Source of the DNA: an uncultured Gammaproteobacteria bacterium
GTDB taxonomy: Bacteria > Patescibacteriota > Patescibacteriia > CAYZDG01
NCBI GenBank assembly: GCA_964536515.1
Contig: CAZHXI010000001.1
Coordinates: 31,480 to 95,479, forward strand
DNA length: 64,000 nucleotides
Reading direction: 5' to 3'
Every line of letters begins with the position of its first letter. The stretch's first letter is position 1. The notes under the pieces are model-generated. The model was not told the DNA's origin. It worked only from the letters and a program-made list of their open reading frames with translations, and did no database searches. The position numbers were made by a program, and so were the translations under genes. This document shows positions 2,131 to 64,000 of the stretch, in pieces.

Positions 2131-2169
2131 AGTAAGTAGCTGTTTCGTTTCAGAATTAATTGTTGGAGT

Positions 2170-14340: not shown

Positions 14341-14355
14341 TGCCTACGTAATGCG

Positions 14356-14383
14356 GTAGAGACGCATTGCAATGCGTCTCTAC
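14356..14383. repeat. Palindromic repeat family copy 1 (GTAGAGACG-CATTGCAATG-CGTCTCTAC), likely a bidirectional terminator
   Basis: Perfect 28-nt palindrome between convergent genes 13537..14340(+) and efp(-). Confidence 0.7.
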
Positions 14384-14415
14384 GTTCGTATTACCGGCGC
14401 ACCGGCCGTCCCTAC

Positions 14416-17803: not shown

Positions 17804-17830
17804 AGACGAGGCGCGCCTCGTCTCTACAGG
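17797..17830. repeat. Palindromic repeat family copy 3 (CCTGTAGAGACGAGGCG|CGCCTCGTCTCTACAGG), overlaps the methyltransferase stop codon
   Basis: 34-nt perfect palindrome; the TAG stop at 17801-17803 lies inside the left arm. Confidence 0.7.
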
Positions 17831-17879
17831 TCCGCCGTTGGCGTACCCGCCGCGCGGCCGCTTGCCCCGTTCATAGAAC

Positions 17880-17909
17880 GGACGATTCGTGGTATAATTT
17901 TTTCGTTCT
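17880..17909 (+). promoter_or_regulatory. Extended -10 promoter (GACGATTCGTGGTATAATTTTTT), near-leaderless start of the second secretion-locus operon
   Basis: TGgTATAAT at 17890-17899; ATG at 17910 is 10 nt downstream. 19/22 identity with the motif at 2171-2192. Confidence 0.6.
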
Positions 17910-19004: not shown

Positions 19005-19009
19005 CGCAT

Positions 19010-19483
19010 ATGGCCCAGCTGCAGCACTTCGTCGTCCCCCAGTTCATAGATATCGAGAGCAAGATTCTGGGGCCCATTACCACCCGGCAGTTCCTGTGGG
19101 TGCTGGGCGCCGGGCTCATTTTCTTCATCGCCCTGCGCACGCTGCCGGTGCCGGCCTTCATTGCCGTAGCGGTGCTGGATGTAGCCGTGTTCGGCAGCTT
19201 CGCCTTCGTGAAGGTGAACGGCCAGCTCTTCCATAACTTCCTGGTCAGCGCCATTGCCTTCGGGCGGCGGCCGAGGCTGTACCTATGGACCGCCGGGGTA
19301 GAGGATGACGGAGTTTCCGTTGCCGCCGTCAGCCCGGCGGAGGCGGTGGGCCAGCGTCCGCTGATTCCCGCCGGCAGGCTGAACGAGCTGGCGCTGCTGG
19401 TAGACACCGGCGGCACCTACCAGGCCGTGACCGCATTCAAGGAAATACCGCCTATCCCCGAAGACCATGTCCCCCAAGCCTAA
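19010..19483 (+). CDS. Small two-TM membrane protein, PrgI/VirB3-like position upstream of VirB4
   Basis: 157 aa; hydrophobic hairpin FLWVLGAGLIFFIALRTLPVPAFIAVAVLDVAVFGSFAFV. Gene-order analogy to Gram-positive T4SS (PrgI then PrgJ). Confidence 0.45.
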   Translation: MAQLQHFVVPQFIDIESKILGPITTRQFLWVLGAGLIFFIALRTLPVPAFIAVAVLDVAVFGSFAFVKVNGQLFHNFLVSAIAFGRRPRLYLWTAGVEDDGVSVAAVSPAEAVGQRPLIPAGRLNELALLVDTGGTYQAVTAFKEIPPIPEDHVPQA

Positions 19484-20141
19484 GCTAAAGAGGGCTCCTG
19501 CTGCCGCCGCGCTGCCGTTCTCGTACCTGCGCGAGGGCAGCGTCATCATGCGAGACGGCAGCCTGCGCGCGGTGCTGCTGGCGTCGTCCATAAACTTCTA
19601 CCTGAAGTCTGAGACCGAGCAGAACGCTATCGTCAGCGGCTACATCGGCTTCCTCAACACGCTCAGCTTCCCGCTGCAGATCGTCATTCAGTCGCGCCGG
19701 CTGAACATAGACGGCTACCTGGCGCAGCTCGAGACTCTGGAGCGGCAGCAGACCAACGAGCTGCTGCGGCTGCAGACGGCAGACTACCGGCAGTTCGTTA
19801 AGGAGCTTCTGGAGCTGGAGGATATTATGACCAAGCGCTTCTACGTGGTCGTGCCCTACGACCCGGCGGGGGATAAGACGCGCGGCTTCATCAGCCGGCT
19901 GACATCTGCCTTCTCGGCGCCGGCTGCGGTGGCGCTGCGCGAGGAGAAGTTCCGTCGGGCCTCGGAGGAGCTATCCAAGCGGGTGGCGCTGGTGCAGAGC
20001 GGCCTGGGCCAGATCGGCATAACCACGGCGGCGCTCGACACCCCCAGCTTGATAGAGCTGTACTACCGAACCTACAACCAGGAGGTAGCCGACGTGCAGC
20101 CGCTGTCGGCCGTCGGTAAGCTGCAGGTAGATGCTTCGTAG
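19467..20141 (+). CDS. Hypothetical protein, possibly the N-terminal domain of a split VirB4-like ATPase
   Basis: 224 aa; overlaps the upstream gene by 17 nt and the downstream VirB4-like gene by 11 nt out of frame. Combined 224+637 aa approximates full-length VirB4 size. Confidence 0.45.
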   Translation: MSPKPKLKRAPAAAALPFSYLREGSVIMRDGSLRAVLLASSINFYLKSETEQNAIVSGYIGFLNTLSFPLQIVIQSRRLNIDGYLAQLETLERQQTNELLRLQTADYRQFVKELLELEDIMTKRFYVVVPYDPAGDKTRGFISRLTSAFSAPAAVALREEKFRRASEELSKRVALVQSGLGQIGITTAALDTPSLIELYYRTYNQEVADVQPLSAVGKLQVDAS

Positions 20142-22044
20142 TATGGATGACGCCCCACGCTTCACCCCCGCAGACCTCAGCCGGTCCCCTCGTCCTTCTG
20201 ACTCGGGGCAGGCTCCCTCGGTTCCGGCTCCCGAGCGTCGCCAGCAGCAGGCTGCCCAGCTGGAGGCCGAGCAGGTCTACCGCCGCGGCGTGGTCTCGGT
20301 GCGCGAGCTGCTGGCGCCGCCCAGCTTCAAGGTTGACTCCAGCTTCGTGCAGCTCGGCGGGGTCTTCGCCCGGACCCTGTTCGTCAGCGCCTACCCCCGC
20401 TACCTGACGGTGGGCTGGTTCGCCAGCGTCATCAACTACAGCGCCACGTTGGATATCGCCATCTACTTCTACCCGCTCGCCGCCGACGTGGTTCTCAAGA
20501 AGATGCGCAAGAAGGTGGGCGAGCTGGAGGCGCAGCTGTCCGAAGACAGCGAGCACGGCGCCCCGCGCGACCCCGCCCGTGAGGCAGCGGTCCGCGACCT
20601 CGAGCAGCTCCGCGACGACCTGACGCAGGGAACCGAGCGGTTCTTCCAGGTCGGGCTGTACGTTACGCTCTACGCGCCGTCGGCGGCCGAGCTCAACCGG
20701 CTAACCGAGCGTATAGAGGGCGTCATCGGCAGCCGCCTGGTCTACACCAAGCGAGCCTTCTTCCAGGCCGAGCAGGGCTTCAATAGCACGCTGCCGCTCG
20801 CCGACGACGAGCTGGGGCTGCCGCTGAACCTGAACACCTCGCCGGCAGCCGCCAGCTTCCCGTTCACCTCGGCTGACCTCACCGGCGACAGCGGCATCAT
20901 GTACGGCATCAACCGGCACAACAATAGCCTCATCATCTTCGACCGGTTCTCGCTGCAGAACGCCAACATGGTGGTGTTCGCCACGGCCGGCAGCGGCAAG
21001 AGCTACGCGGTGAAGCTAGAGATCCTGCGCAGCCTGATGCTGGGCACCGACGTCATCGTCATCGACCCCGAGATGGAGTACCGCCACCTGTGCGAGGCGG
21101 TGGGCGGCACGTACATCAACGTATCGCTTACGGCCGACACCAAGATCAACCCGTTCGACCTGCCGGCGGCGGCCCCGGGCGGCGAGACCAAGGCCTCCGA
21201 CGTCATCCTGACCGCCGTCATCGCCATCAAGGGCCTGCTGCGGCTGATGGTGGGCGGCCTGACCCCGCAGGAGGATTCGCTGCTCGACCGCGCCATCCTC
21301 GAGACGTACGCCAAGAACGACATTACCCCCAGCGCCGACCTGACCAAGGTTACCGCGCCGCTCATGTCCGACCTGGTGCAGGTGCTGGGCGGCCTCACCG
21401 GCGGCGAGAGCATTGTGCAGCGGCTGGTGAAGTACACCTCGGGCACCTTCTCGGGCCTGTTCAATGCCCCCACCAACGTGCGCCTCTCCAACCAGCTGGT
21501 CGTCTTCTCGGTCCGCGACCTGCAGGACGAGCTGCGGCCGCTCGCCATATACAACATTATCCTGTTCATTTGGAGCGTCGTGCGCAGCGAGCTGAAGAAG
21601 CGGCTGCTTGTAATCGACGAGGCCTGGTGGCTTATGCAGTATGAGGACTCAGCTCGGTTCATCTACGCCCTGGTGAAGCGCTGCCGCAAGTACTACCTGG
21701 GCATCACCACCATTACCCAGGACGTGCAGGACTTCCTCAAGTCGCCCTACGGCCCCGCCATCATCAATAACTCAGCCCTGGCGCTGCTGATGCGCCAGCA
21801 CCCCAACGCCATTAGCATGGTGCAGCAGTCCTTTTTGCTCACCGAGGGCGAGAAGTACCTGCTGCTCGAGGCGAACGTGGGCGAGGGTATATTCTTCGCC
21901 GGCAGCCGCCACGCCGCCGTTAAGGTCATGGCCTCCTACGGCGAGGACCAGCTGATTACCACCGATCCGCGCCAGCTGCTGGAGATTGAGCACGCCAAGC
22001 AGGCCTTCGCCCAGGCGCAGGATGCGGCGAAGCCTAACAGTTGA
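20131..22044 (+). CDS. VirB4/TrbE/PrgJ-like type IV secretion ATPase
   Basis: Walker A VVFATAGSGKSY, then IDPEMEY, Walker B LLVIDEAWWLM, then TQDVQDF, the typical VirB4/TraC family motif order. Low-complexity ~80 aa N-terminus. Confidence 0.8.
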   Translation: MLRSMDDAPRFTPADLSRSPRPSDSGQAPSVPAPERRQQQAAQLEAEQVYRRGVVSVRELLAPPSFKVDSSFVQLGGVFARTLFVSAYPRYLTVGWFASVINYSATLDIAIYFYPLAADVVLKKMRKKVGELEAQLSEDSEHGAPRDPAREAAVRDLEQLRDDLTQGTERFFQVGLYVTLYAPSAAELNRLTERIEGVIGSRLVYTKRAFFQAEQGFNSTLPLADDELGLPLNLNTSPAAASFPFTSADLTGDSGIMYGINRHNNSLIIFDRFSLQNANMVVFATAGSGKSYAVKLEILRSLMLGTDVIVIDPEMEYRHLCEAVGGTYINVSLTADTKINPFDLPAAAPGGETKASDVILTAVIAIKGLLRLMVGGLTPQEDSLLDRAILETYAKNDITPSADLTKVTAPLMSDLVQVLGGLTGGESIVQRLVKYTSGTFSGLFNAPTNVRLSNQLVVFSVRDLQDELRPLAIYNIILFIWSVVRSELKKRLLVIDEAWWLMQYEDSARFIYALVKRCRKYYLGITTITQDVQDFLKSPYGPAIINNSALALLMRQHPNAISMVQQSFLLTEGEKYLLLEANVGEGIFFAGSRHAAVKVMASYGEDQLITTDPRQLLEIEHAKQAFAQAQDAAKPNS

Positions 22045-23120: not shown

Positions 23121-24299
23121 ATGTCAAACCTGCGGCGGATTCTGCTCTCACTGGCGTTGCTGGCCGCAGCTGGAGCCATGGGCTTCGGCCTCTACTGGCT
23201 CTTCTTCCGCGTGCCTACGCCCTCGCCGGTAACGCCGCCCCCCGGCGCCGGCGGAGGACAGTTCCCGCCGTCGGGGCAGGGCGGCGGAGGCACGGCCGCT
23301 ACCGGCACCGGCCGGTTCCCCATTACCCCGGCCGACGGCGTCGGGCCGTACGTTACAGCTAGCACCACGGATGGCGTAGCCGGCGCCGTAGCTGCCCCGG
23401 ACGGTAGCATCCGCTACTACGATTCCATCCGCAAGCAATTCGTTAACCTAGCTGCCGACGGCAGCATTCAGCCGCTCTCGCCCGACCGATTCTTCGGCGT
23501 CTCCGACGTTACCTGGGCGCCCGGCAATTCTCGCGCGGTCGTGGCCTACCCGGACGGCAGCAAGGTGCTGTACGATTTCGCCACCCAGCAGCAGTCCACC
23601 CTGCCGCGTGCCATGCAGGACGTCTCCTTTGACCCCTCCGGCACCAAGCTAGCTAGCCTGTACCTCGGCTCGACCAAGGAGGAGCAGTGGCTGGTAACCT
23701 CCAACGCCGACGGCAGCCAGATTCAGCTGGTGGAGCCGGTCGGCGGAAAGGTGAACAACTTCAAGCCCAGCTGGTCGCCGAGCGGCCAGATTGTGGGGCT
23801 GTTCGCCGAGGCGGTAGACGGCGAGCGTCAGGAGGTGGTGCCCATCGGCCGTAACGGCGAGAACTTCCGCTCATTCGTGGCGCCCGGCCGCGGATTCACC
23901 GCCGAGTGGTCGCCCTCGGGCGAGCGTATCCTCTACAGCGTGTTCAACTCGGCTAGCCAGGGCCGGCCCGAGCTGTACCTAGCCGACGGCCGCGCCGATA
24001 CCTTCGGCGCGAACAGCACCAGCCTGGGGCTATCTACCTCTGCCGACTGGTGCTCATTCTCGGGAGGCAGCGTGTACTGCGCGGCGCTCGACACACCGCC
24101 GGCCCTGCTGGGTTCGTACCCCGAGCTGGCGCAGGGGCAGGCGTCGTCGCTGTGGCGAATAGACCTAGCCAGCGGCCAGCGCACCCGGGTCGCCCAGCTG
24201 CCGCAGGGCTTTACCCCCAGCCGGGTAACCGCCGACGCCGGCGGCGTGTACGTAGCCGACCAGTCTACCGGACGTCTCTATGCTGCGCCGACGCGGTAG
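23121..24299 (+). CDS. TolB-like (PD40/WD40-like) beta-propeller protein with N-terminal membrane anchor
   Basis: N-terminal TM, then repeated YPDGSKVLYDF / SWSPSGQIVGLF / EWSPSGERILYSV PD40-type repeats. Confidence 0.5.
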   Translation: MSNLRRILLSLALLAAAGAMGFGLYWLFFRVPTPSPVTPPPGAGGGQFPPSGQGGGGTAATGTGRFPITPADGVGPYVTASTTDGVAGAVAAPDGSIRYYDSIRKQFVNLAADGSIQPLSPDRFFGVSDVTWAPGNSRAVVAYPDGSKVLYDFATQQQSTLPRAMQDVSFDPSGTKLASLYLGSTKEEQWLVTSNADGSQIQLVEPVGGKVNNFKPSWSPSGQIVGLFAEAVDGERQEVVPIGRNGENFRSFVAPGRGFTAEWSPSGERILYSVFNSASQGRPELYLADGRADTFGANSTSLGLSTSADWCSFSGGSVYCAALDTPPALLGSYPELAQGQASSLWRIDLASGQRTRVAQLPQGFTPSRVTADAGGVYVADQSTGRLYAAPTR

Positions 24300-25365
24300 C
24301 CTGCTCTTGCTCGCCGCGCTCGCCACGCTGGCGGTAGCCGTGGGCACATCCGCCGTGGCAACGGCGCAGACTTCGGGCCCGAGCAACAGCAGCGGCCAGG
24401 TTGAATTCTGGCCCAGCATCTACTTCCCGGGGCTGGAGCAGATCGAGGGCGTTAGGCAGGATACTGCGACGGGGCGGTACTCCGTAACCGTTACGCCAAC
24501 TACCCTCGGCGAGTACATCGTTGCGCTGTACAAGTTCTTCACCGGGGCAACGGCCATCGTGGCCATGTTCATGGTTACCTACGGAGGGCTGCTGTGGCTC
24601 CTCGCCGGCGGCAACCAGGGCAGCATCAGCCACGCCAAGGAGGTCATTACCGGGGCTATCGCCGGCATGGTCATTGCGCTGCTGTCGTACGCGCTGCTGG
24701 CTACCATCAGCCGGGGGCTGGTGGAGTTCAAGAGCCTAGACACCAGGCTGGAGGCGAGGCTGGGGCAGGATAGTACCTCGTCCGGCCCAGACCTGGGCTG
24801 CGCGAATCCGCAGTTCCAGGACATCATCACCACGGACGCCATAGACGCTACCAGCGGCGGCGCCTCGTTTACCTGCGCCAACATCGGCGCAGTCGAGTCG
24901 CTGGTGGTTGCGGCGCAGAATACCTTCGATCAGACGAATAGACGGGTGCTGCTGACCAGCGCCTACAGGTCTCGTACCAGGCAGGAGCAGCTCTACGATG
25001 AGAACACGCGCAATAGCGCCTGCCGTCGAGACCACCCCGCAGACTGGAAGACCCAGTGCGGCTCGGGCGACGCCACCCCGCCCACCTGTAACCCGTGGCT
25101 ATCTCGGGGCTGCCCCCACACCACCGGCTACGCCCTAGACGTCCGCTGCTCTGGGCAGCCTGAGTACGGCGAGTGCCAGCTCGCCCTGGAGCAGAGCATG
25201 ATCGAGCAGGGTTTCTGTAGGCTGGCGAATGAGACCTGGCACTTCGAGAAGCCTCCGGTCTCATCCAACTGCGTCGGCGGCCCCGTTGACGGCACCGGCT
25301 ACCGCAGCGGCTGCCCCACTTGCTGCAATAGTTTGACCAACGAGCACTGCGAGGGAAGAGAGTGA
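24280..25365 (+). CDS. Fusion of a VirB2/TrbC-pilin-like N-terminal module with a C-terminal M15 (VanY-like) zinc D,D-peptidase (peptidoglycan hydrolase)
   Basis: Signal peptide, then VAMFMVTYGGLLWLLAGGNQGSISHAKEVITGAIAGMVIALLSYALL (TrbC/VirB2-like). C-terminal SAYRSRTRQEQLY…CPHTTGYALDV…ETWHFE (S-x-H-x(n)-D … W-H-[FY]-E M15 motifs). Confidence 0.55.
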   Translation: MLRRRGSLLLLAALATLAVAVGTSAVATAQTSGPSNSSGQVEFWPSIYFPGLEQIEGVRQDTATGRYSVTVTPTTLGEYIVALYKFFTGATAIVAMFMVTYGGLLWLLAGGNQGSISHAKEVITGAIAGMVIALLSYALLATISRGLVEFKSLDTRLEARLGQDSTSSGPDLGCANPQFQDIITTDAIDATSGGASFTCANIGAVESLVVAAQNTFDQTNRRVLLTSAYRSRTRQEQLYDENTRNSACRRDHPADWKTQCGSGDATPPTCNPWLSRGCPHTTGYALDVRCSGQPEYGECQLALEQSMIEQGFCRLANETWHFEKPPVSSNCVGGPVDGTGYRSGCPTCCNSLTNEHCEGRE

Positions 25366-25421: not shown

Positions 25422-25868
25422 TTACTTCTGCTTCGTTACTACACGCTGGGGTACAGCATTGCGCTGCATATTCCAGGCGCTGGTCATGCTCGTATCGACG
25501 AAGATTTTTGAGTGGGGACCCAGGTGGTCACGGTGCACTAGGCACCTGTTGCATGCGTCCCTGTCGGTTGCCACAACGGCAAAGTCGTGGTCTTCTCCAT
25601 CGTCAGATGAGACACGGACCACGCCAATGCACTGTAGCGTGCTGCCGTATTGCTCGCAGAGTTCGGCGAGTTCACGTGGCGACTGGGGCGAGGGGTGCGT
25701 AATGTTCACGGTTAGCCTGCTGTCGCGGACCACGTGCTCTCGCAGCTCTCCCCTCGGGGTTGGCAGCGCCTCATTGATGCGAACCTGACTGACGCCCGCC
25801 CCAAATAGGCGAGTTCGTACGAAGCTTTGCAGCCCCTCTCCTGGGGCCACTGGAATGAAAGAATCCAT
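25422..25868 (-). CDS. Hypothetical protein in a lower-GC island
   Basis: Start at internal ATG (MDSFIPVAPG…); no recognisable motifs. Region 25380-26190 is visibly lower GC, with an AT-rich upstream tract at 25860-25990. Confidence 0.35.
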   Translation of the reverse strand: MDSFIPVAPGEGLQSFVRTRLFGAGVSQVRINEALPTPRGELREHVVRDSRLTVNITHPSPQSPRELAELCEQYGSTLQCIGVVRVSSDDGEDHDFAVVATDRDACNRCLVHRDHLGPHSKIFVDTSMTSAWNMQRNAVPQRVVTKQK

Positions 25869-26193
25869 TTTTTCTGCTCGGTTTTTTGTTTTTCGGTTTT
25901 GAAAATCGAGATAGTTTCCGCCACCTTTCCGTTGGCGGTTTAGTTTCGGGTTATATATTTGAAGTCTTGTAGGGGTTAATTTTGGGTCGGCCGGGGCGCC
26001 GGGCAGCGGAACCGAAAACCGCTGCCCGGTGCTGGCGGCGCACGGAAAACTCGATGGCGTTTGTAGCTTTCGCGGCGAACACGGCACAGCGTGCTCCCGA
26101 CCGACCCTTAGTGAGTTGAACTCAGATCATTCCCTTAGGAATTCAATGAGCTTACGCCAGGATAGTGCTACTAAGCTTAAGAAATGTCAAGCC

Positions 26194-35235: not shown

Positions 35236-36087
35236 ATGGCTTTCCATGGTGCGTCTCCACATTTCTATGAATCTCCCGAAGTCGTTGAGGAATTCGGAAG
35301 AGATGGCGGCCTCATACATGAGGTCGTTGTAGCTGGACGGAAACAGGGAATCGGCAAAAAGTTTTGGGCATACCTAGCCCACAGCCCCGAGGTGTTCGAG
35401 GCTGTCATACAGTTCGTGAACGAAGGTAGGGCACGACCCTGCATTGAGTACAGGAGAGCCATTGGGCTACTGGAATCTGTTAATTCAATTGATGCCCAAC
35501 AGGCAGGGTACTGTTGGCTGGAGAAGCCACAGAATTACGGTGTCCACTACACCAAGGCTACGCTCGACGTGTGCATGGTCGAGAATGCCCAGGGTAAGGC
35601 TGACTGGCGTTTGGTATACCTATTCAACCTTAGCTTGAGCAATATTGTTAAGAAGCTAGAGCCGGGTAGCGTACACTACGTGCCGTTCGGTCTCGTTCTA
35701 GAGCGTCCGCCGTTAGGCGATTGGTCCCACGGGGCAAAGCCGGAGGGGTACTACCTAATTAACTTCAAGCCGCAATTCCTTGGGTGTAATTGGTCAGCCA
35801 AAGTTGAAGAGATGGAGAAGCTCGATGGTAGGTTCTTTTGGCCCAATCCTGCATCCATTGCTCAGGCGATTATGTCCGCGGGTACCATTCCCGGTGCCGA
35901 CCCGACCCAAGTGGGTCGACCGGAGAAAAAATTATTGCTCCGACATGGTGCACACGTAGCGTACGACGGGAATTTTGTTAGCATTACCCGCTGGCTCGAT
36001 GAGAAGAGCGTGCAGTGGTCGCCAATTGAAAAGGATGACGACCTCGCGAGCAGCGCTGGCGTATGCATTGGTTTACGATGGGAGTAA
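35236..36087 (+). CDS. Hypothetical protein, visibly lower GC than its neighbours (accessory gene)
   Basis: 283 aa; a GRKQGIGKKF segment vaguely GNAT-motif-A-like but misplaced. No confident family. Confidence 0.45.
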   Translation: MAFHGASPHFYESPEVVEEFGRDGGLIHEVVVAGRKQGIGKKFWAYLAHSPEVFEAVIQFVNEGRARPCIEYRRAIGLLESVNSIDAQQAGYCWLEKPQNYGVHYTKATLDVCMVENAQGKADWRLVYLFNLSLSNIVKKLEPGSVHYVPFGLVLERPPLGDWSHGAKPEGYYLINFKPQFLGCNWSAKVEEMEKLDGRFFWPNPASIAQAIMSAGTIPGADPTQVGRPEKKLLLRHGAHVAYDGNFVSITRWLDEKSVQWSPIEKDDDLASSAGVCIGLRWE

Positions 36088-37817: not shown

Positions 37818-38246
37818 CTAGACTGCCTTGTCACGTTTCTTGTCTTCGGCCTCATCGCGTCTTCCTACGGCCGTACGTACCGTTATGAGCCCGAGGTCGT
37901 TGTTCAGCTCGGCATTTTTTTCCCAGACATGAATCGCCCTGCTCATCTCAGCGTGGTCCTTGAATATTCCAATGATGACGCGGCTACGGCGTAGCCCTAC
38001 GGGCAGATTCCTCCCAAGTAAGCTTTCTAGGTCAGCTTGGTATACATCTCCCGGGAAGATGACTAAGCAGCCGTCGAGCCGTTTTCCCTTGTCGTTACTA
38101 CCGCTGAGGTAGATGAAGGCAAAGAAGCTATTGGAGCTGATCCTTTTGGCCCGATCGATGTCTCTCAATGCTGCTCTGTGGAGGTCTTCCCAGACAAGGA
38201 TCTCAAACGAACCACTGGCGTTGCTGGTGGTGTATTCAATGAACAT
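37818..38246 (-). CDS. Hypothetical small protein, paralog A of a tandem pair (lower GC)
   Basis: Start at internal ATG 38246; the track ORF uses TTG at 38288, which overlaps the predicted -10. Shares an F-AF-Y-x-G…PGD-Y-A-L core with paralog B. Confidence 0.5.
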   Translation of the reverse strand: MFIEYTTSNASGSFEILVWEDLHRAALRDIDRAKRISSNSFFAFIYLSGSNDKGKRLDGCLVIFPGDVYQADLESLLGRNLPVGLRRSRVIIGIFKDHAEMSRAIHVWEKNAELNNDLGLITVRTAVGRRDEAEDKKRDKAV

Positions 38247-38282
38247 ATCTCTTACCGCCCTTTTGTTGGTTCTGTACGAATG

Positions 38283-38320
38283 GCGCAACGTTAAACCCCG
38301 CGGGTGCGGGTGTCAATCGT
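38283..38320 (-). promoter_or_regulatory. Promoter of paralog A: TTGACA-[CCCGCACCCGCGGGGTT]-TAACGT (minus strand)
   Basis: -35 at 38311-38316, 17-nt GC palindromic spacer, -10 at 38288-38293. Near-identical copy precedes paralog B. Confidence 0.55.
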
Positions 38321-47745: not shown

Positions 47746-48486
47746 TTAGCTGGCCAGCAGCTGGTCCAGCGCGCTCTTGATCTGCGCGAAGGGCACGGCG
47801 CCCTCCAGCGGAATCTTCTGGTCGCCGGTCAAAATGACGCTGTAGGGCGTACCCTGGGCGCCGGCTGCGGCAGCGGCGGCAATATCGTCCTGGATCTTCT
47901 GGCTGTACTTTCCCGAGCTCAGGCAGCTCTCGAACTTGGCGCGATCCAAGCCGACCTGCTGGGCGATCACCGGCAGCTGCGCTGCATCTAGGCCGTTGTT
48001 CGCCGGCGTTACCTCGTAGATCTTGTCTAGGAAAGCCCAGAACTTCTCGGGGCCGCCCAGCTCGTTGGCGCACTCCGTAGCCTCGGCCTCCTTGACCGCC
48101 TTGGGGTGGATAGAGGTCAGCGGGAAGTGGCGGTAGACCCAGGCCACCTGGTCGCCGTACTCGGCGACTACCTGCTTGAGCGTGGGGTGGAAGTCCTTGC
48201 AGAAGGGGCACTCGGTGTCGGAGTACTCTACGATCGCCACCTTGGCTTTGCTCAGGTCGCCGCGGACGTGGTCCGCATCCGTTACCGGCGCAATGACGAT
48301 GTTGCCCTGGCCCTGCTGGCCGGTATTGTCCGTGGGTAGGTTGCCGCCGTTGCCACCGAACTTGGTGCCGGTGTCCTTGGTCAGCGTCCAGACGAAGCCG
48401 GCGGTTCCGGCAATGAGTAGGCCGAACACCAGCCCGACCAGGAAGATGTTGAGCGGCGTAAGTTTGAACGGGGACTGTTCGTCCAT
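47746..48486 (-). CDS. DsbA-like thiol:disulfide oxidoreductase (membrane-anchored thioredoxin fold)
   Basis: N-terminal TM; CPFCKDF CxxC active site; VYRHFPL…HP region. Confidence 0.75.
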   Translation of the reverse strand: MDEQSPFKLTPLNIFLVGLVFGLLIAGTAGFVWTLTKDTGTKFGGNGGNLPTDNTGQQGQGNIVIAPVTDADHVRGDLSKAKVAIVEYSDTECPFCKDFHPTLKQVVAEYGDQVAWVYRHFPLTSIHPKAVKEAEATECANELGGPEKFWAFLDKIYEVTPANNGLDAAQLPVIAQQVGLDRAKFESCLSSGKYSQKIQDDIAAAAAAGAQGTPYSVILTGDQKIPLEGAVPFAQIKSALDQLLAS

Positions 48487-55144: not shown

Positions 55145-55813
55145 ATGAGAAATGACGAGTTAGTTCTAGGAGCTACGCAGGCGTACGAGCTCCAGGCGAG
55201 TTTGCGCAAAGCCGGGTACACGGACGGAGAGCTCAAGGCCCTATCTGGCACCCCGTTTCTGTCGAAGGTGCTCACGGTCATTCGTGGGCAGGCGACCATC
55301 CAGGCTCTGCCGCCCGCCGAGCAGGCGCCCGTCACGCCGTTCGAGCCCAAGGTCTTCAAGACCATCAAGCTGGGCGAACACAAGTCCCACAAGGACTACC
55401 GCAAGGCCATGGAGAAGGCGGGCTTCCGCATCGGCGACTACGCGGTCCAGATTCTGGAGAAGGTCACGGTGGCGAGCGAGCCCACCGAGCTGGACCTGGT
55501 GGTCGTGACGGTCGGCGAGCTCGGATTCAAGGACGGCGCGCGGCGAGACGCCATCTACGAGAAGGCCCTGAGCCTCGGGCTGCAGCTCTGCCCGAACGAA
55601 GTCGGCCCGGCACTGCGCCTGGCGCACCCGGACCAACCCATGAACGAGTGGCTGCGCGTCGGCATGGAGCCCCTCACGGACTCGGGCGGCGGCCTCTACG
55701 TCTTCTGCGTGGACCACGACGGCAACGGGCGCTGGCTCGACAGCTACTACGGCGAGCCCGACCTCGTTTGGAACGCTGTCAACCGCTGGGTGTTCGTCCA
55801 GCCCCGCAAGTAA
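55145..55813 (+). CDS. Hypothetical protein (accessory)
   Basis: 222 aa; no recognisable motifs. Confidence 0.45.
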   Translation: MRNDELVLGATQAYELQASLRKAGYTDGELKALSGTPFLSKVLTVIRGQATIQALPPAEQAPVTPFEPKVFKTIKLGEHKSHKDYRKAMEKAGFRIGDYAVQILEKVTVASEPTELDLVVVTVGELGFKDGARRDAIYEKALSLGLQLCPNEVGPALRLAHPDQPMNEWLRVGMEPLTDSGGGLYVFCVDHDGNGRWLDSYYGEPDLVWNAVNRWVFVQPRK

Positions 55814-56781: not shown

Positions 56782-56811
56782 CGTAGAGACGAGGCGCGCC
56801 TCGTCTCTACG
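56782..56811. repeat. Palindromic repeat family copy 5 (CGTAGAGACGAGGCG|CGCCTCGTCTCTACG)
   Basis: 30-nt perfect palindrome downstream of yqeY; acts as terminator and/or insulator before the giant adhesin promoter. Confidence 0.7.
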
Positions 56812-56881: not shown

Positions 56882-59800
56882 ATGATGCCTTCGTTGCGCT
56901 CCTGGCTAACAGTTCGAACGGGCATTGCCGTGGCCAGCGCGGCTGCGCTGGCATTGGGTACCTGGCTCGTCGGCAGCCAAATTGGCGTGCAGGCAAACCC
57001 ATCGGTCAATGGGGTCTGCGATGGCGCAGACCGCTGCCTTGAGCCGACCGAAGTCTCAACATTCTTGGGGCGGGCGATAGAGTCGGACCCAGACCAGGCT
57101 GTGGGCAAGCACGAGTGGGACTTCACGGGCACCGGCACCTACGGCAACGTCGTAACCTGCGTCGGCGCCGCCTGCCGGCAGAGCTGCAACGACCTGGCCC
57201 ACCCGCTGTGGCAGGACTGCTCTGCTACCGACTACAGCTACAGCAGCGAGGCTTTCTTCGCCTCGACGAATGAGCGGCAGGTTACGGTAGGAATGCGGGG
57301 CGTCGATACCGAGGGCGCAGCTGGAGTGGCCCAGACCCGCAAGGTCGGCGTGGCCATTGCCTACGTCGGCCCCGACCGAGGCAGCAGCAACCTAGCCGTC
57401 AGCGGCGTGGGCGCCGGCAGCTTCACCGTAACCTGGCGAGACGTTACCGATGTTCCCGGCAGCGCCTACACCCTGCACGTGGATAACCTTGACGACGGCA
57501 CGGGGGACACGATACCGGTTACCAACGACAAGGCTATCGGCGACGCCTACAGCGTGGCGTACACAGCTGATCCATCCACCGACTACCTCGTCTGGGTGGT
57601 GGTTTACTACCCCACGCCGACGGGCTCTATCGTGCGGCAGAACCTGCCCCCATCAGACCCCATCGTCGGCGTGCCCGTTACCACGCCGGCCAACGGTCTG
57701 CCGACGCTGACTATCCAGCGTCAGCCAGGAAACGTGCCGCCGGCGGCTGCGGCTCCGCACTACCAGCTGCTGCGGCAGGCCGGCAACGTGCTCACCCTCA
57801 ACATAACCGTGGCCGACCCAGACGGCGACCAGCTGGCCGAGCTACGCATCGACGGCCTAGCTTCGTTGCCCGGCGCAACGTTCAGCGGCTTCAGCACGCC
57901 GACCCCCGGGCCGGTGACCAGGACGATGACGTGGAACTTGAACATGGCGCCCCCGCCGAGCGGGGACTACTCCATTAACGTGGTCGCCCGCGACGTGGTC
58001 GGCGGCACGGCCAGCCGCGCCGTGGTCATTCGGCTTAACTCCAACCCCGATGCGCCGACCAGCCTGCAGGTGAACACCAACGATGCTACCTCGGGCCTGG
58101 CATCTGGCGACCCCAGCCCGGTGGCCCAGGTTATAGACGATAACCTGGCTGACCAGAACCTGAAGTTTACCTACCGCCACGCCGACCCAGACGGCGACGC
58201 CGCCGCCAACTACCGTATCCAGGTAGATACGGACTCTGCCTTCGCCAGCCCCCAGACGTGGGACTCGGGCAGCCAGAGCTTGGCGGTGGCCAACGGCACC
58301 CGCTCCGCTAACGTTACCTACACCGGGCCGGCGCTAGCCTATAGCACGGACTACTGGTGGCGGGTGCAGGTCGGCGACGGCAACGGCAACCTCAGCTCCT
58401 ACGGCGCCGGACGCTTCCGGCTGCGCCCCACCAACTACGCGCCCGTGCTCGACCCCATCGGCAACCGGTCTGTAGACGTGGGCGCCACCCTGACGTTCAC
58501 CATGACCGCTTTCGATCAAGATGTAGCCGACGGCATCCAGACCCTGAGCTACCTGGCCCAGGGCGGGCTGCCGTCCCCGCGCATGGCGCTCAACCCGCTC
58601 ACCGGGGCTTTCACCTTCACGCCTAGCTCGGCTGACCTGCCGCCGGCTAGCCCCTACACCGTTACGCTCTGCGCCCGCGATAGCTTCACCCCGACCCCGG
58701 CGCAGGACTGCGAGACGATTACCATCACGGTCAACCTCAACCTGGCCGCCCCGACCGGACTGAGCGTGAGCTTCACCAGCCCCACGGCCGGCACCGCGAC
58801 GTGGACCCACAGCGCCCCGGGCGAGGACGGCTTCCAGCTCGACCAGACCGCGCCGGTGAGCACCCCGAACATCCTCTCGGTAGCGGCGAACGTTACCAGC
58901 GGGAGCTTCACCTTCAACCAGTGCGGCAGCACCTCGACCGTCGGGTTCCAGGTGCGCGCCTTCGTAGATACCGGCGTGAGGCAGTTCAGCGCCGCCGCGA
59001 GTGGCTCGGCTAGCCGCCCCGGCTTCGCCACTCCCACCGGCCTCTCCGTCGCCGCGACCGGCAACACCACCGCTCGGCTATCGTGGACCCCGGGTACCAC
59101 CGGTCAGACCGGCTACGCCGTGTACAACGGTGGCACGCGGCTCGCCGACGCTCCGGCTGCGGCGACCAGCTACGACTTCTCCGGCCTCACCCCAGCTAGT
59201 AGCTACACCTTCCGCGTGCGGCCGCTGGTTGGCATCACCGGCTGCCTGCCGGGCAACGAGGCGCTGGGCGCCACCGCCAGCGTGGCCTGGACGCAGCCCA
59301 ACCCCGCCCTCACCGTTACGCCGTCCAGCCTCGCCTTCGGCAACGTGGTCAAGGATGCAAACTCGGCTACCCAGACCGTTACCGTTCGCAATACCGGCGG
59401 GGTGGTGCTGACGGGCATCACGGCGGCTATCGCGGGTGCAGATGCCGGCCAGTTCAGCCTGCTCAATACGCCGCCGGCCAGCCTGGCGCTCAACGCAACT
59501 TGGGATGCCCAGGTCCAGTTCCGTCCCACGTCGTACGGCGCCAAGTCTGCCCAGCTGCAGATTGCTGCGCCAAGCTTCGGCCTATCATCCAACGTAGCGC
59601 TGACGGGAACCGGGGTGCCGACCGCTCCGGTCATTACATCGGCGAGCTGGGACGCGAACGAGCCGAGCAGGTACAGCCTCGCCTGGACGTGGGGTCCCGG
59701 CGACCCGGATGACTTCTCGATACAGATGCCGCTGGGAACAGAGCAGTTCCGGCTGACCCTGGGCAACCAACGGGCGCGCAACAACCAGCTGCTGACGTCC

Positions 59801-61873
59801 AGCTACTGCTACTCCGCTACCGGCACGACCCACACCATCAACCTGCTGGCTTTCGACGGAGGCTACTCGGTACCGGCTACGGCGAACCTCGGCACGAGGC
59901 CCGGCTGGGAGGCCATGGGTGGGCCAACTTCGACGGTATGGCTATCGGATACGTCGGCTCGTCTGACATGGGCTGACCCCGCGCCCGCCCGTAGCCGCTA
60001 CGAGGTGCGGGTTTGGACTACCGCGCCTTCTCCCGTAGCGATCTTCAGCGCCACCACGACCGACGACGCCACGAGTATAGATCTCACCGGACTGGTGGCA
60101 GGTACCAACTACAACGTAACCGTGCGGCCGTTACGGTTGCCCATTGATTTGCCCGGGTGCTCCGCGCCGATTTACGGGAGCAGGGTTAGCTTCGCCTACC
60201 GTCAGCCGATTGTGGATATAGAAGTCTACGTGCAGGATACACCGGCAAGTTCGCCGCAGATATTTGAACTCGATGGGGGCGGAGTATTGCTGGGCGACGC
60301 TCTCTCGTTCCCATTACGTATCAAGAATAACGGCGACCCGATCGTCATCGGTGGATTCAGCTCAGAGATTACCGGCGGCGGAGTTCCGGGTGGCATTAGC
60401 CTCTCGACCAGCTGGCCAGTTACCGACTGCGGGGGTGGGGTGTTCGGCTTCTGTGGCGGAGCTACTTGGAACACCAACGTTCAGCTCGGCGTTTCTGGGA
60501 TGACTGGACCAGAGCTCGAGGTACGCGTTCAACTTGAGACTGGGGTGTACGGGCGGGTACTAGATTTCCCCATTCGGATGGTCGCACTTAGTAGCGACCC
60601 GGCAACCGATCAGGAAATATTTGTTACCGCAGCTGGGCATATCGGCGACTTCGGAAATAGCCAGGCACAGGCAGAGCAGGTCTCAAATGATTTCTGCATG
60701 GCGGACACCCGACGGAACCCCCTCAAGAGCTACAGGGCGTTGCTCTGGTACAGCAATAGCCCGTTGCCGGGAGTTCTGAGCCCGGGGACTCTGTATTTCA
60801 ATCGGTCGGGTGAGTTTGTATTCGGTACACGGCCGTCTGACGTTACCCCGCCCTATACCGCCCACCGACCCATATGGGGTGTGAGCCCGAGCGTCTGGTC
60901 TGGGCGAGGCATTGGAGGCGAAGCCTATAACTGTAGCGAATGGACCGGCAATGGTATGGCTACCGGTGCGACAGTCAACCCCAGCAGTTTGGGTCAGTGG
61001 AGCTTGGGCAGCGGCGCCAGTGTATGCTTTACAAATTCGAAGCCAATTTACTGCGTTTCCTACCCGACTACCAGCGTAACCGTGAGTCCCCTTACCCATG
61101 ATTTTGGATTCGTTCAGTTCAGTTCACCTGCGGCCACGCAGCAGGTGGTTATAACGAATACCGGATCGTCAAATGTTACGCTGACGAGCGTCAGCATTGT
61201 CGGCGGAGGGGGGGATTTCTCCCTCGTATCGCCCGTAGCGCTCGGCAGCTTCTCTTCGGGCCAAACGAGGACAGCTAATGTGCAGTACGATCCTGCGGGC
61301 ACACCTGGTTCGAATACGGCAACTCTAAGAATCGTGACTACGGAGGCCGGCACCATCGACGTTGCTCTGTCGGGTCACGGAATTCAGACGTTGAAGCGAA
61401 TTGCATTGGTGAATCCCCCCAACAATGGAGGTTTCCTTGCAGTCGGCGTCGGTACCCCCGAGCAGCGAGCTGATGCAATTTGTCAGGCGGATCCGTTGAT
61501 CGCGAGTTTGGGTGGAACTTGGAAGGCCCTGCTGAAGGCGAGCGACGCTTTCGTGGGAACTGCGTTGCACGGCGGCGTTACCTATGCCTCAGCTACCAAT
61601 CCGGGGTCGGTGCTATTCACGGCTGCCACGGATAACGATGTGAGCCAGCCTATGATATCCCCGTTAACTGGGAGCACGACTTACGTCTGGACTGGCGACT
61701 ACGATTTCGTAGGTGACTGCAATGCTTGGACCAGCAACAACGCTGGTAGCGGTGGAGCTGGGCGAGCCTGGACAGCTGCCTGGACACCCGCCGATCAGTT
61801 GCGTTGGTTTTCAGGAGGACTAGGGATAGCCTGCTACGGCTCAGTTCAAAAAATATACTGCGTGGAGCAGTAG
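56882..61873 (+). CDS. Giant (~1660 aa) surface adhesin-like protein with FN3, ASH/PapD-like (choice-of-anchor-type) Ig domains and an internally duplicated Cys-containing C-terminal module
   Basis: Signal-anchor MMPSLRSWLTVRTGIAVASAAALALGTWLVG. FN3 (LSWTPGTTGQTGYAVYNGG…YTFRVRPL). ASH-like (…LAFGNVVKDANSATQTVTVRNTGGVVLTGI… and …FGFVQFSSPAATQQVVITNTGSSNVTLTSV…). Duplicated ~130 aa modules ending …KPIYCVSYP and …QKIYCVEQ. The track start at 56771 lies inside the palindromic repeat. Confidence 0.65.
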   Translation: MMPSLRSWLTVRTGIAVASAAALALGTWLVGSQIGVQANPSVNGVCDGADRCLEPTEVSTFLGRAIESDPDQAVGKHEWDFTGTGTYGNVVTCVGAACRQSCNDLAHPLWQDCSATDYSYSSEAFFASTNERQVTVGMRGVDTEGAAGVAQTRKVGVAIAYVGPDRGSSNLAVSGVGAGSFTVTWRDVTDVPGSAYTLHVDNLDDGTGDTIPVTNDKAIGDAYSVAYTADPSTDYLVWVVVYYPTPTGSIVRQNLPPSDPIVGVPVTTPANGLPTLTIQRQPGNVPPAAAAPHYQLLRQAGNVLTLNITVADPDGDQLAELRIDGLASLPGATFSGFSTPTPGPVTRTMTWNLNMAPPPSGDYSINVVARDVVGGTASRAVVIRLNSNPDAPTSLQVNTNDATSGLASGDPSPVAQVIDDNLADQNLKFTYRHADPDGDAAANYRIQVDTDSAFASPQTWDSGSQSLAVANGTRSANVTYTGPALAYSTDYWWRVQVGDGNGNLSSYGAGRFRLRPTNYAPVLDPIGNRSVDVGATLTFTMTAFDQDVADGIQTLSYLAQGGLPSPRMALNPLTGAFTFTPSSADLPPASPYTVTLCARDSFTPTPAQDCETITITVNLNLAAPTGLSVSFTSPTAGTATWTHSAPGEDGFQLDQTAPVSTPNILSVAANVTSGSFTFNQCGSTSTVGFQVRAFVDTGVRQFSAAASGSASRPGFATPTGLSVAATGNTTARLSWTPGTTGQTGYAVYNGGTRLADAPAAATSYDFSGLTPASSYTFRVRPLVGITGCLPGNEALGATASVAWTQPNPALTVTPSSLAFGNVVKDANSATQTVTVRNTGGVVLTGITAAIAGADAGQFSLLNTPPASLALNATWDAQVQFRPTSYGAKSAQLQIAAPSFGLSSNVALTGTGVPTAPVITSASWDANEPSRYSLAWTWGPGDPDDFSIQMPLGTEQFRLTLGNQRARNNQLLTSSYCYSATGTTHTINLLAFDGGYSVPATANLGTRPGWEAMGGPTSTVWLSDTSARLTWADPAPARSRYEVRVWTTAPSPVAIFSATTTDDATSIDLTGLVAGTNYNVTVRPLRLPIDLPGCSAPIYGSRVSFAYRQPIVDIEVYVQDTPASSPQIFELDGGGVLLGDALSFPLRIKNNGDPIVIGGFSSEITGGGVPGGISLSTSWPVTDCGGGVFGFCGGATWNTNVQLGVSGMTGPELEVRVQLETGVYGRVLDFPIRMVALSSDPATDQEIFVTAAGHIGDFGNSQAQAEQVSNDFCMADTRRNPLKSYRALLWYSNSPLPGVLSPGTLYFNRSGEFVFGTRPSDVTPPYTAHRPIWGVSPSVWSGRGIGGEAYNCSEWTGNGMATGATVNPSSLGQWSLGSGASVCFTNSKPIYCVSYPTTSVTVSPLTHDFGFVQFSSPAATQQVVITNTGSSNVTLTSVSIVGGGGDFSLVSPVALGSFSSGQTRTANVQYDPAGTPGSNTATLRIVTTEAGTIDVALSGHGIQTLKRIALVNPPNNGGFLAVGVGTPEQRADAICQADPLIASLGGTWKALLKASDAFVGTALHGGVTYASATNPGSVLFTAATDNDVSQPMISPLTGSTTYVWTGDYDFVGDCNAWTSNNAGSGGAGRAWTAAWTPADQLRWFSGGLGIACYGSVQKIYCVEQ

Positions 61874-61895
61874 CAGCCTGTACACTTAATCACCA

Positions 61896-64000
61896 TGCGC
61901 CGTTCGTCCATCGCCACCGCAATCGCCCTCGCCCTGCTGGTGCCGGGCGTTGCCCTGGCGCAGGATGCCAACTTCGGCCTGGACCAGCTGAGCAGCATCG
62001 AGATCGGCCGGCAGTCGCTGGTCGAGACAATTTCCGACATCGTCAACGTGGTGCTGGGCATACTCGGCATCGTGGCGTTCATCATCATCCTGTACGGCGG
62101 CTTCCTGTGGATGACCTCGAAGGGCGATGAGAAGATCATCGCCAAGGCTAAGAAGGTCATCATCGACGGCGCCATTGGCCTGGCCATCATTCTCGCCTCG
62201 TGGGCGATCGCCGCGTTCGTGCTCAACCTGCTGGGGCGGGGGACCGGCGTCGGGGGTAACGGCGACGGCGGCCCCGACGATGACGGCGGCAATACGTCTA
62301 CCTTCCGCTACCTAATGTGGACCGACCGTTCGCCGGACCCCAGCGATCCAGCCGCACCAAGGAACAGCCTGGCGGTGGTTACATTCAACCAGGATCTAGA
62401 CTGCACATCGGTTACGTCCGATTCGGTGGTACTGACCGGCCCCTCCGGCGTAGTCAGCAACGTGCACCTGCGCTGCAGCGGCCGCAGCATCACCATCCGT
62501 TCCGGCACGCCCTGCCCGGCGCCGCTGGACCGCGAGCCCGTGCCCACGGCGCAGCCCAACGTCTGCGGCAGCACGCCGCCCATTGCCCAGTGCCTGCGCC
62601 CCACGGCCTACTCCACCACGCCGCCGGCCGAGAGCTGCCAGCCGCTGGACCCCGCCGGGGCAACGGTGGCCCAGTGCCCCGGCCTGCGCAGCTGCGGCTG
62701 CTACGCCGCCGGCACCTACACGCTGCTGCTGAGGGGCGGGGCCAGGAGCGCGCTCAACCCGAACGTGCTGGAGGGTACCGACAGCCGCCGCCGCTTCATG
62801 CAGGCCGATGTGAGCTGGGACTTCGCCCTCTCCAATGAGCTAGACACCGAGGCGCCGCGCATCGAGAGCGTAACCCCGGCGCCAGACACGACGCAGCCGC
62901 GGAACATGAACGTTACCGTGCGCTTCACCCGTCCCATCGATCCGGCGACGGTCAACGATACGACGCTGCGCATTACCCAGGACGGCAGCCCCGTGCCGGG
63001 CCGCATCGTCGGCCTAACCACCCGCAGCGTCCGCTGGAAGCCGACCGGGGTGTGCGGCGGGGGAGCGCCGGCAAGCTGCGGCTGCTTCAACCCCAACGCC
63101 GATATTCGCGTGGAGGTGCACGACGGGCCCGACGGCATCCGCGGCGCCAGCTGCCTGGGGCTCGATACGTCCACGGGCCCCGCGGGCATGACGTGCACGG
63201 CCGGAGACATGTGCCGCTACAATTTCCGTACCAACGGCAGCGTCGACCTAGAGGCGCCCACGCTCAACCGAACCCAGCTCTACCCATCCGAGGGCGCCAC
63301 CGACGTAGACCGAGCCCTGCAGGTCGGCGCGCTGTGGCCCGGCCGGGTGCTCGCCACCCTCGACGATAGCAGCGGCATTGCCCTGGATACCGTGGACTAC
63401 ACCACCTACCTAATGTCCAACGATGTGCCGACCCGACAGGTGAGCGTCGGTGCCGTTACGCCAGATCGAGCTCAGTTCGGGCTGCTGCCCGGCACCGAGG
63501 TGCTGGCGCCCAGCCGTACCTACCTGCCCAGCCTGTACGGCCGCGGCGGCCTGTGCAGCGACGACGTGATGGGCATTACCGATAACGCGGGCAACGCCCT
63601 GGCGGGCCGGGTACGTTGGCAGTTCCGCACCGGCGAGAGCGTGAATGCTGGGGCGCCGCTCATCACCCGCGTCAGCCCCAACACCGGGCCGCACGGCCAG
63701 TGCGTCACCATCTTGGGTTACAACCTGGGCTGCTACAGCGGCGCGGGAGACGGCCCGGCCCAGGCGGGCCAGTGGACCGGCACGCAGTGTCAAACCGCCG
63801 CCGCAGCGGGGGAGGTAAAGGTTACCGATAGCTCGGGCAACCTGGTTACGGTGCCGGCCGGCGACATCCTATCGTGGGACGAGGTAGATCGGCCCGAGCC
63901 GTGCACGCCCGGCTCGAACTGCCCCAGCAGCTGCCAGGCAAGCACCTGCGCCGGCTCCTGCGGCAGCTGCGCCCTGGTGCCGAGCCCAGCGGCAGATAGC
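61896..64000 (+). CDS. Second VirB2/TrbC-pilin-like N-terminal module fused to a large Cys-rich Ig-like (Big/IPT-type) ectodomain; 3'-truncated by window edge
   Basis: MRRSSIATAIALALLVPGVALA signal. IVAFIIILYGGFLWMTSKGDEKIIAKAKKVIIDGAIGLAIILASWAIAAFVL, paralogous to residues ~95-150 of the 24280 ORF. Frame stays open to position 64000. Not in the ORF track because no stop lies in the window. Confidence 0.6.

Follow-up and report, generated by a model that had tools for sequence, protein, structure and literature searches.

The window, a 64-kb stretch of DNA, carries on its forward strand (56882-61873) the gene for a giant surface protein of 1,663 residues, referred to below as the giant. The reading we favour, with a probability of roughly 70%, is that of a Sec-exported fibrillar surface protein with an anchored N-terminus, a stalk of immunoglobulin (Ig)-like domains and a ligand-binding tip that serves as a recombination cassette. 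Judging from sequence comparison of the giant with its relatives, lineages have exchanged the tip, which comprises about 560 distal residues, and kept the stalk and the pilin-like neighbour in place, as would be expected of a determinant of host or ligand specificity. The reading frame, taken from the list of open reading frames (ORFs) and its translation, is real: gene callers chose the identical start at 56882 on the Logan contig L001, which is 100% identical to the window, and the identical 1,663-residue sequence is recorded as P0151 from a 158-kb NCBI contig. Orthologues share 40-71% protein identity with the giant of the window.

The tip includes two endostatin-like, DUF1554-like modules (features lie on the forward strand unless otherwise stated). 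M1 (residues 1243-1395, 60608-61066) is matched by a hidden Markov model (HMM) of 72 DUF1554-family proteins, and M2 (residues 1504-1663, 61391-61870) is terminal, ending in IYCVEQ and the stop codon. The earlier note on this DNA had claimed an internal duplication, with two cysteine-containing modules of about 130 residues that finish in near-identical motifs. M1 and M2 align by BLASTP at 27% identity over 141 residues (E=4e-8), and because the four cysteines of M1 (1272, 1351, 1382 and 1391) are all in register with those of M2 (1534, 1613, 1651 and 1660), the duplication is, on this alignment, genuine but old. There are indeed two such modules; their length, however, is about 150-160 residues, and near-identity is seen in nothing but the motifs at their C-terminal ends. 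The second and third cysteines are separated by 31 residues in M1 and 38 in M2, the third and fourth by 9 in both.

That the modules are DUF1554-like, as had been guessed, is confirmed by the family profile and by HMM scores. An exhaustive search of 1.84 billion representatives (E<=1e-3) with a profile built from M1, M2 and the module of protein P0001 found 410 proteins; 64 of 72 sampled short matches are recognized by Pfam DUF1554 at E<=0.001 (best E 5e-42), and Pfam Endostatin also matched 13 of the 74 sequences scanned. The HMM of 72 DUF1554-family proteins, from which the window sequences had been excluded, scored M1 at 86.7 bits and M2 at 87.9 bits. Three cysteine columns are invariant in the 74-sequence module alignment and the fourth is at least 90% conserved, and the modules display the cysteine spacing of endostatin together with a C-terminal YC(V/F)(E/Q)Q end. 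The AlphaFold2 model of M2 derived from this alignment has a predicted local distance difference test (pLDDT) score of 91, and its top four PDB matches by Foldseek are human and murine endostatin; the predicted three-dimensional fold of M2 is endostatin-like. With the disulfide pairing of endostatin as a template, each module probably contains two disulfide bonds. A search of the C-terminal 421 residues against the 5.8-billion word-indexed set returned a single fragment, P0001, and M2 had no meaningful match among the PDB sequences.

The stalk (residues 166-1107, 57377-60202), defined by Pfam and orthologue alignment, consists of about nine β-sandwich domains of FN3, PhoD_N/Rha78A-like Ig, cadherin-like and ASH-like types (Pfam). 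Pfam fn3 matches the whole protein with E=8e-19, with an extra copy at residues ~1021-1082 (29.9 bits), and Ig_Rha78A_N/PhoD_N match residues 405-512; the cadherin and filamin matches are weak. The FN3 and two ASH-like Ig domains that had been proposed are borne out by Pfam, one of them sub-threshold, and by the paralogy of the two Ig domains. The first (residues 808-911, 59303-59614) scores 41.5 bits against Pfam Cep192_D4, with a cutoff of 35.5, and includes the motif FGNVVKDANSATQTVTVRNTGGVV singled out by the earlier reader. The second (residues 1399-1500, 61076-61381), which includes the motif FGFVQFSSPAATQQVVITNTGSSNV from the same source, is the ASH/HYDIN-like spacer between M1 and M2. 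It lies just under the Pfam cutoff for HYDIN_VesB_CFA65-like_Ig (residues 1402-1495, 25.2 bits vs. 25.5), and DUF1573 and ASH also match it sub-threshold. In a domain-wise BLAST these two domains are 35.5% identical over 107 residues (E=2e-8). A further Ig-like domain precedes M1 (residues 1108-1240, 60203-60601; delimited by its neighbours and by orthologue alignment); it has no Pfam match at E<=10, and its identity to the orthologue P0002 descends to about 40%. The possibility that Ig plus M2 arose as a tandem duplicate of the Ig plus M1 ahead of it was rejected on the same domain-wise BLAST, because the Ig domain of the tip is closest to residues 806-912 and not to residues 1108-1240. The tandem Ig-like/FN3 array is of the kind by which fibrillar adhesins are recognized.

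At the other end, residues 1-38 (56882-56995) form a signal peptide or signal anchor, of which residues 13-32 are the sole hydrophobic segment of the giant (Kyte-Doolittle scan). Cleavage is possible between VQA and NPS, and the sequence NPSVNGVC just after this candidate site is invariant across three orthologues. It is followed by a conserved six-cysteine domain (residues 39-165, 56996-57376), delimited by the orthologue alignment, in which cysteines 46, 52, 93, 98, 102 and 113 are invariant; it has no Pfam match and is a candidate docking or anchoring domain. The giant contains 22 cysteines in all. A DsbA-like thiol-disulfide oxidoreductase (47746-48486, reverse strand; Pfam Thioredoxin_4 and DSBA), encoded 8 kb upstream and kept in the syntenic locus L003, may be an accessory for their oxidation.

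The evidence for exchange of the tip comes from architecture, composition and a junction. The window and locus L094 have tips of the form M1-Ig-M2, L090 has M1-Ig'-M', the orthologues P0002, P0152 and P0003 have three modules in succession (M-M-M), and P0153 has a single one. Among the closer orthologues the classes M1, M2 and M3 show 46-61% identity; for P0003, a distant orthologue, the first module gives only 32-37%. M1 of the window and the modules in first position in the orthologues share 53-56% identity, whereas M2 of the window is only 24-33% identical to any orthologue module. P0002 is the nearest orthologue; the giant shares 64-90% identity with it in most of the stalk (residues 151-1150), 38-60% in residues 1150-1400 and about 25-38% in the final ~260 residues. 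At the nucleotide level, BLASTN homology to L003 is lost at 60340 and returns at 61856, from where it continues at 80% through the pilin gene.

The composition of the gene changes over almost the same interval. A tract of foreign G+C content at third codon positions (GC3) covers the whole tip (codons ~1081-1663, 60122-61873) and overlaps almost entirely with the gap in homology to L003 (60340-61856). Codons 1-1100 have a GC3 of 0.826 and codons 1101-1663 one of 0.606, a step estimated at ~10 standard errors; the value is 0.867 in the pilin-fusion gene and 0.80-0.90 in most genes of the window. In L003, which comes from a genome with a comparable GC, the GC3 of the orthologue stays at 0.70-0.86 through the tip. 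The donor of the tip was probably of lower GC.

The 3' exchange junction (61853-61873) coincides with the last seven codons, IYCVEQ and stop, encoded by TATACTGCGTGGAGCAGTAG, and was located by BLASTN and MAFFT with the 1.2-kb contig L090, which stems from a different sample. L090 and the window are identical at 156 of 158 nucleotides (nt; 98.7%) of the downstream flank, a stretch comprising the seven terminal codons of the giant, the spacer and the first part of the pilin gene, over which L003 and L090 are only 78% identical. Directly upstream of it the nucleotides of L090 and the window are unalignable and the tips 37% identical. These alignments place the 3' crossover point at the terminal IYCVEQ codons. 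L094 carries a tip of the window type, 73% identical, with a GC3 of 0.64-0.76 beside a pilin gene of GC3 0.905. Its pilin protein is 72% identical to that of the window, and that of L003 is 81% identical, though L003 has a different type of tip; since L094 shares the tip yet has the more distant pilin, the distribution of tips is phylogenetically incongruent. The suggestion in the earlier note of modular, exchangeable cassettes is thus upheld by the differing tip composition of the orthologues, the foreign GC3 and the L090 junction, and the comparison of relatives that it called for found the tip not to be invariant.

The next gene encodes a pilin fusion and runs past the end of the window (61895-64000; Pfam T4SS_pilin and Big_5). 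It had been described as pilin-like with a start at 61896; the start is at 61895, and the description itself holds, as T4SS_pilin (PF18895) matches residues 40-108 at 39.8 bits, above a cutoff of 26.6. The full protein of 745 residues is P0155 in L092, a contig that is 100% identical to the window over 61311-64000 and extends it downstream. A scan detected hydrophobic segments at residues 3-25, 41-75 and 87-116, corresponding to a signal peptide and two transmembrane helices, which together with the Pfam score characterize a VirB2-like pilin. C-terminally, the pilin domain carries Big_5/cysteine-rich extracellular domains. T4SS_pilin is conserved in all orthologues of the fusion, which is 81-82% identical to its L003 orthologue and better conserved than the giant (82% and 52% vs. 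65% and 41%).

Downstream of the pilin fusion, L092 encodes a 1,392-residue Big_5/PKD protein (L092 2824-7002) with its own signal peptide and a cysteine-rich N-terminus, followed by a 337-residue protein, a TSP3-repeat protein, a 393-residue protein, YbeY, FtsA and FtsZ. The gene for the ~1,400-residue Big_5/PKD protein, whose counterpart in L003 lies at 17364-21467, begins 1-2 nt past the stop of the pilin fusion in L092 and related loci, and the gene for the 337-residue protein follows it by 6 nt at most; gaps of this size suggest that the locus is a tightly coupled operon. Upstream of the giant lie the genes for signal peptidase I, HisRS, a 222-residue ORF, S21 and YqeY. The 222-residue ORF between HisRS and S21 (55145-55813, forward strand) lacks both a Pfam match and a counterpart in the syntenic loci L003 and L005, and has a native-like GC3 of 0.88.

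The genes for the giant and the pilin fusion adjoin in L003/4, L005-7, L089/93, L090, L091, L092 and L094, and wherever the contig reaches far enough upstream the pair sits downstream of S21-YqeY. The giant is 71% identical to that of the window in L003/L004, 57% in L089/L093 (L093 being from a groundwater sample), 47% in L091 and 40% in L005-7, and the GC of these loci ranges from 0.42 to 0.68. A GTDB scan with an alignment of three giants found one contig with an orthologue (L008, CAYZDG010000035.1, 6 kb), which is 74% identical over the N-terminal 449 residues; neither a GTDB genome scan with the tip nor a scan of JGI metagenomes with the alignment of giants gave any match. When JGI metagenomes were scanned with the pilin-fusion alignment, 79 of the 80 loci had no DUF1554 module, the one exception being L052, and the pairing is therefore a feature of a narrow clade and not general to pilin fusions. 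In L052 (5538-14081) a single protein of 2,847 residues has an N-terminal T4SS_pilin domain and a C-terminal DUF1554 module, and also holds three Big_5 domains, InlB B-repeats and segments homologous to the ~1,400- and ~340-residue proteins of the operon. The locus is syntenic, with HisRS and YqeY upstream and a TSP3 protein downstream. This fusion argues that the products of the operon act together.

The modules of the tip are best compared with the leptospiral endostatin-like (Len) adhesins, with which DUF1554 is equated and which bind laminin, fibronectin and factor H (PMC2387172). The reverse primer used for Lp95, translated in this analysis, encodes an ILCVEQ end followed by a stop (PMC4109591). 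Like Len and Lp95 (Pfam DUF1554, PF07588), the modules are of ~150 residues, with four conserved cysteines, a YCVEQ-type end and a predicted endostatin-like fold. By contrast, Len proteins are one-module lipoproteins of ~200 residues from a diderm spirochaete, whereas the giant has two divergent, sub-cutoff modules on a multi-Ig stalk, with exchangeable tandem tips, and its organism is probably monoderm-like and unrelated to Leptospira. In its design, an Ig-like stalk with a C-terminal C-type-lectin-like tip, the giant resembles intimin and invasin. However, there is no sequence relationship to these, no β-barrel/LysM N-terminal anchor and no Big_1 by Pfam, and the tip is of the endostatin subtype and duplicated. 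In the accounts by Monzon and Bateman (PMC8286594, PMC9210967), fibrillar adhesins are long and fast-evolving proteins with repeated stalk domains and a terminal adhesive domain. Measured against that description, the giant is similar in its FN3/Ig-like stalk and terminal candidate adhesive domain and differs in combining an N-terminal anchor with a C-terminal tip, in having no sortase motif or other known anchor motif that could be seen, and in its linkage to a VirB2-like fusion. Unlike phage tail fibres or the fibre proteins of Bdellovibrio, which also swap receptor-binding tips, it is encoded among housekeeping genes in conserved synteny and shows no trimeric fibre signature. An origin of the giant in phages was also considered and rejected, as a scan of viral contigs gave no relatives.

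The neighbouring genes invite comparison with the type IV secretion systems (T4SSs) of Patescibacteria, in which a monoderm-type T4SS is combined with VirB2-like PF18895 pilins (PMC12102498; PMC10633639). In the sole genetically tractable epibiont a T4SS-like system is essential, as are the Se T4SS pilins (PMC10633639). Pilin paralogues in patescibacterial arrays are highly variable and are thought to aid host adaptation (PMC12102498; PMC10633639), and adhesins such as PrgB were not detected in the Patescibacteria T4SS dataset (PMC12102498). The window likewise holds PrgI/VirB3, a VirB4-like ATPase and PF18895 pilin-like proteins, and this combination (PrgI, VirB4 and PF18895), with the housekeeping content, is the ground on which we infer a patescibacterial affiliation. 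Unlike in the arrays, the pilin-like domain forms the N-terminus of a 745-residue protein outside the T4SS cluster, and it is the tip of the neighbouring giant that varies, the pilin fusion being conserved.

Taken together, the following mechanism is proposed. The N-terminal signal anchor and the six-cysteine domain would hold the giant at the cell surface, the latter docking on the cell or on partners from the operon. A stalk of about ten FN3/Ig-like domains, several tens of nanometres long, would project a tip formed by the two endostatin-like modules (DUF1554, a C-type-lectin-like fold) and their Ig spacer. By analogy with the Len adhesins, intimin and invasin, this tip most likely binds a ligand, a glycan or protein of another cell, which would be the host or a partner cell if the organism is an epibiont of the Patescibacteria type, as the gene content suggests. 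The giant, the VirB2-like pilin/Ig fusion and the two further exported proteins would probably form one surface appendage, with a putative physical association of the giant and the pilin-like protein. Replacement of the tip between lineages would change the binding specificity while the stalk and partners are kept.

A more far-reaching version, to which we give a low probability, is that the organism is an ultrasmall epibiont and its operon specifies a composite appendage for host recognition, in which the tips of the giant set the host range and are traded among strains as cassettes at the IYCVEQ codons, and that this is the missing adhesin of the patescibacterial T4SS. Its members would be the giant, the pilin/Ig fusion, the ~1,400-residue Big_5/PKD protein, and the ~340-residue and TSP3-repeat proteins, with a pilin-type membrane hairpin or filament carrying the Ig-domain stalks. 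If true, such an appendage would be a cellular equivalent of the swapping of tail-fibre tips in phages. For the question of how ultrasmall host-dependent bacteria recognize their hosts, the locus provides a testable candidate determinant. It would also extend DUF1554 from the adhesins of Leptospira, the source of all functional knowledge of the family, to a modular tip on giant proteins, and its clean natural intragenic mosaicism could be used for mapping specificity determinants.

Each of the domain families is known, as is the stalk-plus-tip design, and the giant is not categorically new. In the literature searched, which mentions DUF1554 in few papers, we found no description of tandem DUF1554 modules serving as exchangeable tips on a giant protein, of the conserved pairing and occasional fusion of such a protein with a VirB2-like pilin fusion, of an intragenic GC3 step and junction in it, or of endostatin in combination with Patescibacteria.

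Several observations weigh against the favoured reading of an anchored fibrillar protein with an exchanged, ligand-binding tip. Domain anatomy, paralogy, fold, synteny and mosaicism are established directly, whereas adhesion is deduced from the analogy of domains. The modules belong to DUF1554 by profile and transitive homology and fall short of it by the Pfam gathering score: M2 reaches 22.4 bits (E=1.2e-4) for a gathering score of 27.5, M1 has no match to Pfam DUF1554 at E<=10, and a whole-protein Pfam scan of the giant did not report the family. On reading the C-terminus, which ends in IYCVEQ, no LPXTG-type or similar cell-wall anchor was seen, and this bears on retention at the surface if the signal peptide is cleaved. 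The evidence from L090 rests on a 1.2-kb contig and 158 nt of shared flank, and the 5' boundary of the tip is diffuse, at codons ~1000-1100. The window-type tip of L094 indicates that a tip can be inherited at a divergence roughly matching that of its neighbour, and part of the pattern could be ancient polymorphism instead of recent transfer. Finally, the metagenome-assembled genome (MAG) containing L008 is labelled 'uncultured Gammaproteobacteria'; this contig may be mis-binned.

Among the alternatives, it is possible, if unlikely, that the giant is a component of the envelope or matrix, or a secreted glycan-binding or scavenging protein, which binds wall polymers of its own cell or environmental polysaccharide. 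Variation of the tip would then, with equally low probability, reflect drift or the evasion of phages or predators. C-type-lectin-like folds, which gave weak matches here, often bind carbohydrate, no anchor motif was found in the giant, LytR_cpsA_psr and other envelope genes lie nearby, and pressure from phages likewise diversifies surface proteins. However, a conserved N-terminus with a variable distal C-terminus fits recognition that faces outwards, the sole characterized DUF1554 proteins are adhesins, and the giant is tightly linked, and in a relative partially fused, to a membrane-anchored pilin-like protein.

It is rather improbable that the giant is a T4SS-dependent adhesin at the tip of, or associated with, a pilus, displayed on a filament of the VirB2-like fusion that is built by the T4SS encoded at ~17.9-25.4 kb. 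In essence this is the proposal of the earlier note that the adhesion cassettes serve a single secretion machine. The T4SS_pilin domain of the next gene is above the Pfam cutoff, PrgI and a VirB4-like ATPase are encoded within the same window, and the L052 fusion joins a pilin domain to a DUF1554 tip. Patescibacterial pilin arrays of T4SSs are moreover essential and variable, and no dedicated adhesin has been found with them (PMC12102498; PMC10633639). Yet the operon is 31 kb away from the T4SS cluster and is found beside housekeeping genes in every relative, each operon protein examined has a Sec-type signal or anchor of its own, and the two-helix hairpin of the fusion may be a mere membrane anchor. 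Because its N-terminus is of the Sec type, the giant need not be a T4SS substrate. We know of no characterized precedent for the polymerization of a VirB2-like pilin with a C-terminal extension of some 600 residues (~600-630), which is atypical for VirB2.

Very improbable is a chimeric assembly or binning artefact, in which case the gene would not be mosaic and the low-GC3 tip and the L090 junction would both be spurious. All the sequences are derived from metagenomes, L090 is just 1.2 kb long, and the Logan assembly breaks inside the gene for the giant, between the end of L001 at 58541 and the beginning of L092 at 61311. Against this, the reading frame is unbroken across the junctions, the 158-kb NCBI contig encodes the identical 1,663-residue protein, and the independently assembled L092 matches the last 186 residues and the downstream genes at 100%. 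L094, from another sample, has the same type of tip and the same drop in GC3 beside a high-GC3 pilin gene. Least credible of all, and rejected here, is the generation of tip diversity by a diversity-generating retroelement (DGR) or other local hypermutation instead of cassette exchange: variable regions with a C-type-lectin fold commonly form the end of DGR targets, DGRs often occur in uncultured lineages with small genomes and Foldseek gave a very weak match to Mtd (E=3.9), but no template repeat of the 60-62 kb region occurs anywhere in the 64-kb window, no reverse transcriptase was found among the window ORFs scanned with Pfam, and the tips differ by whole-domain replacement at 25-37% identity and by altered domain order, not by adenine-specific substitutions.

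In the Logan assembly of SRR12487045, positions 58542-61310 are unassembled between L001 (48618-58541) and L092 (61311 onward). No nucleotide repeats were found in this interval, and the gap may stem from strain heterogeneity in the tip region.

Elsewhere, the window is rich in housekeeping genes and contains the T4SS cluster at ~17.9-25.4 kb, with PrgI and the VirB4-like ATPase. The earlier note had paired the giant and its neighbour, as a second surface-protein and pilin-like unit, with a parallel unit at 2757 and 24280. This parallel finds no support in the sequences, which have neither detectable similarity nor a DUF1554 module in common, or in the position of the two genes, 14 kb apart. 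The 2757 gene (2757-10415) encodes a 2,552-residue protein directly upstream of the T4SS cluster, followed by proteins of 1,038 (10419-13535) and 267 residues (13537-14340), none of the three with a Pfam match. In an all-against-all BLASTP these proteins (2757, 10419 and 13537) had no match in the operon of the giant at E<=1e-4, and no DUF1554 module occurs in the window outside the gene for the giant. Located 14 kb beyond the end of the 2757 gene, the pilin-like gene at 24280 is part of the T4SS cluster. It encodes a 361-residue protein (24280-25365) with sub-threshold matches to T4SS_pilin (21.8 bits) and a VanY-like domain (20.9 bits), and might combine a peptidoglycan peptidase with a pilin-like membrane hairpin beside the VirB4 cluster.

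A perfect 28-nt palindrome, GTAGAGACGAGGCGCGCCTCGTCTCTAC, is present in at least three copies (17800-17827, 18495-18522 and 56783-56810), the last of them between YqeY and the gene for the giant, with variants at 17075-17102 and 14353-14385. It looks like a family of repetitive extragenic palindrome (REP)-like or terminator hairpins. Because the copy at 18495 is contained in the ORF at 17910-19004, this gene call is questionable. Four ORFs have a low GC3 (0.58-0.67), namely 25422-26087 (reverse strand), 35236-36087, 37818-38288 (reverse strand) and 2105-2755, and might likewise be foreign, or else genes of fast turnover. Among them, 2105-2755 (forward strand) encodes a TSP3-repeat protein related to those found downstream of the operon in relatives.

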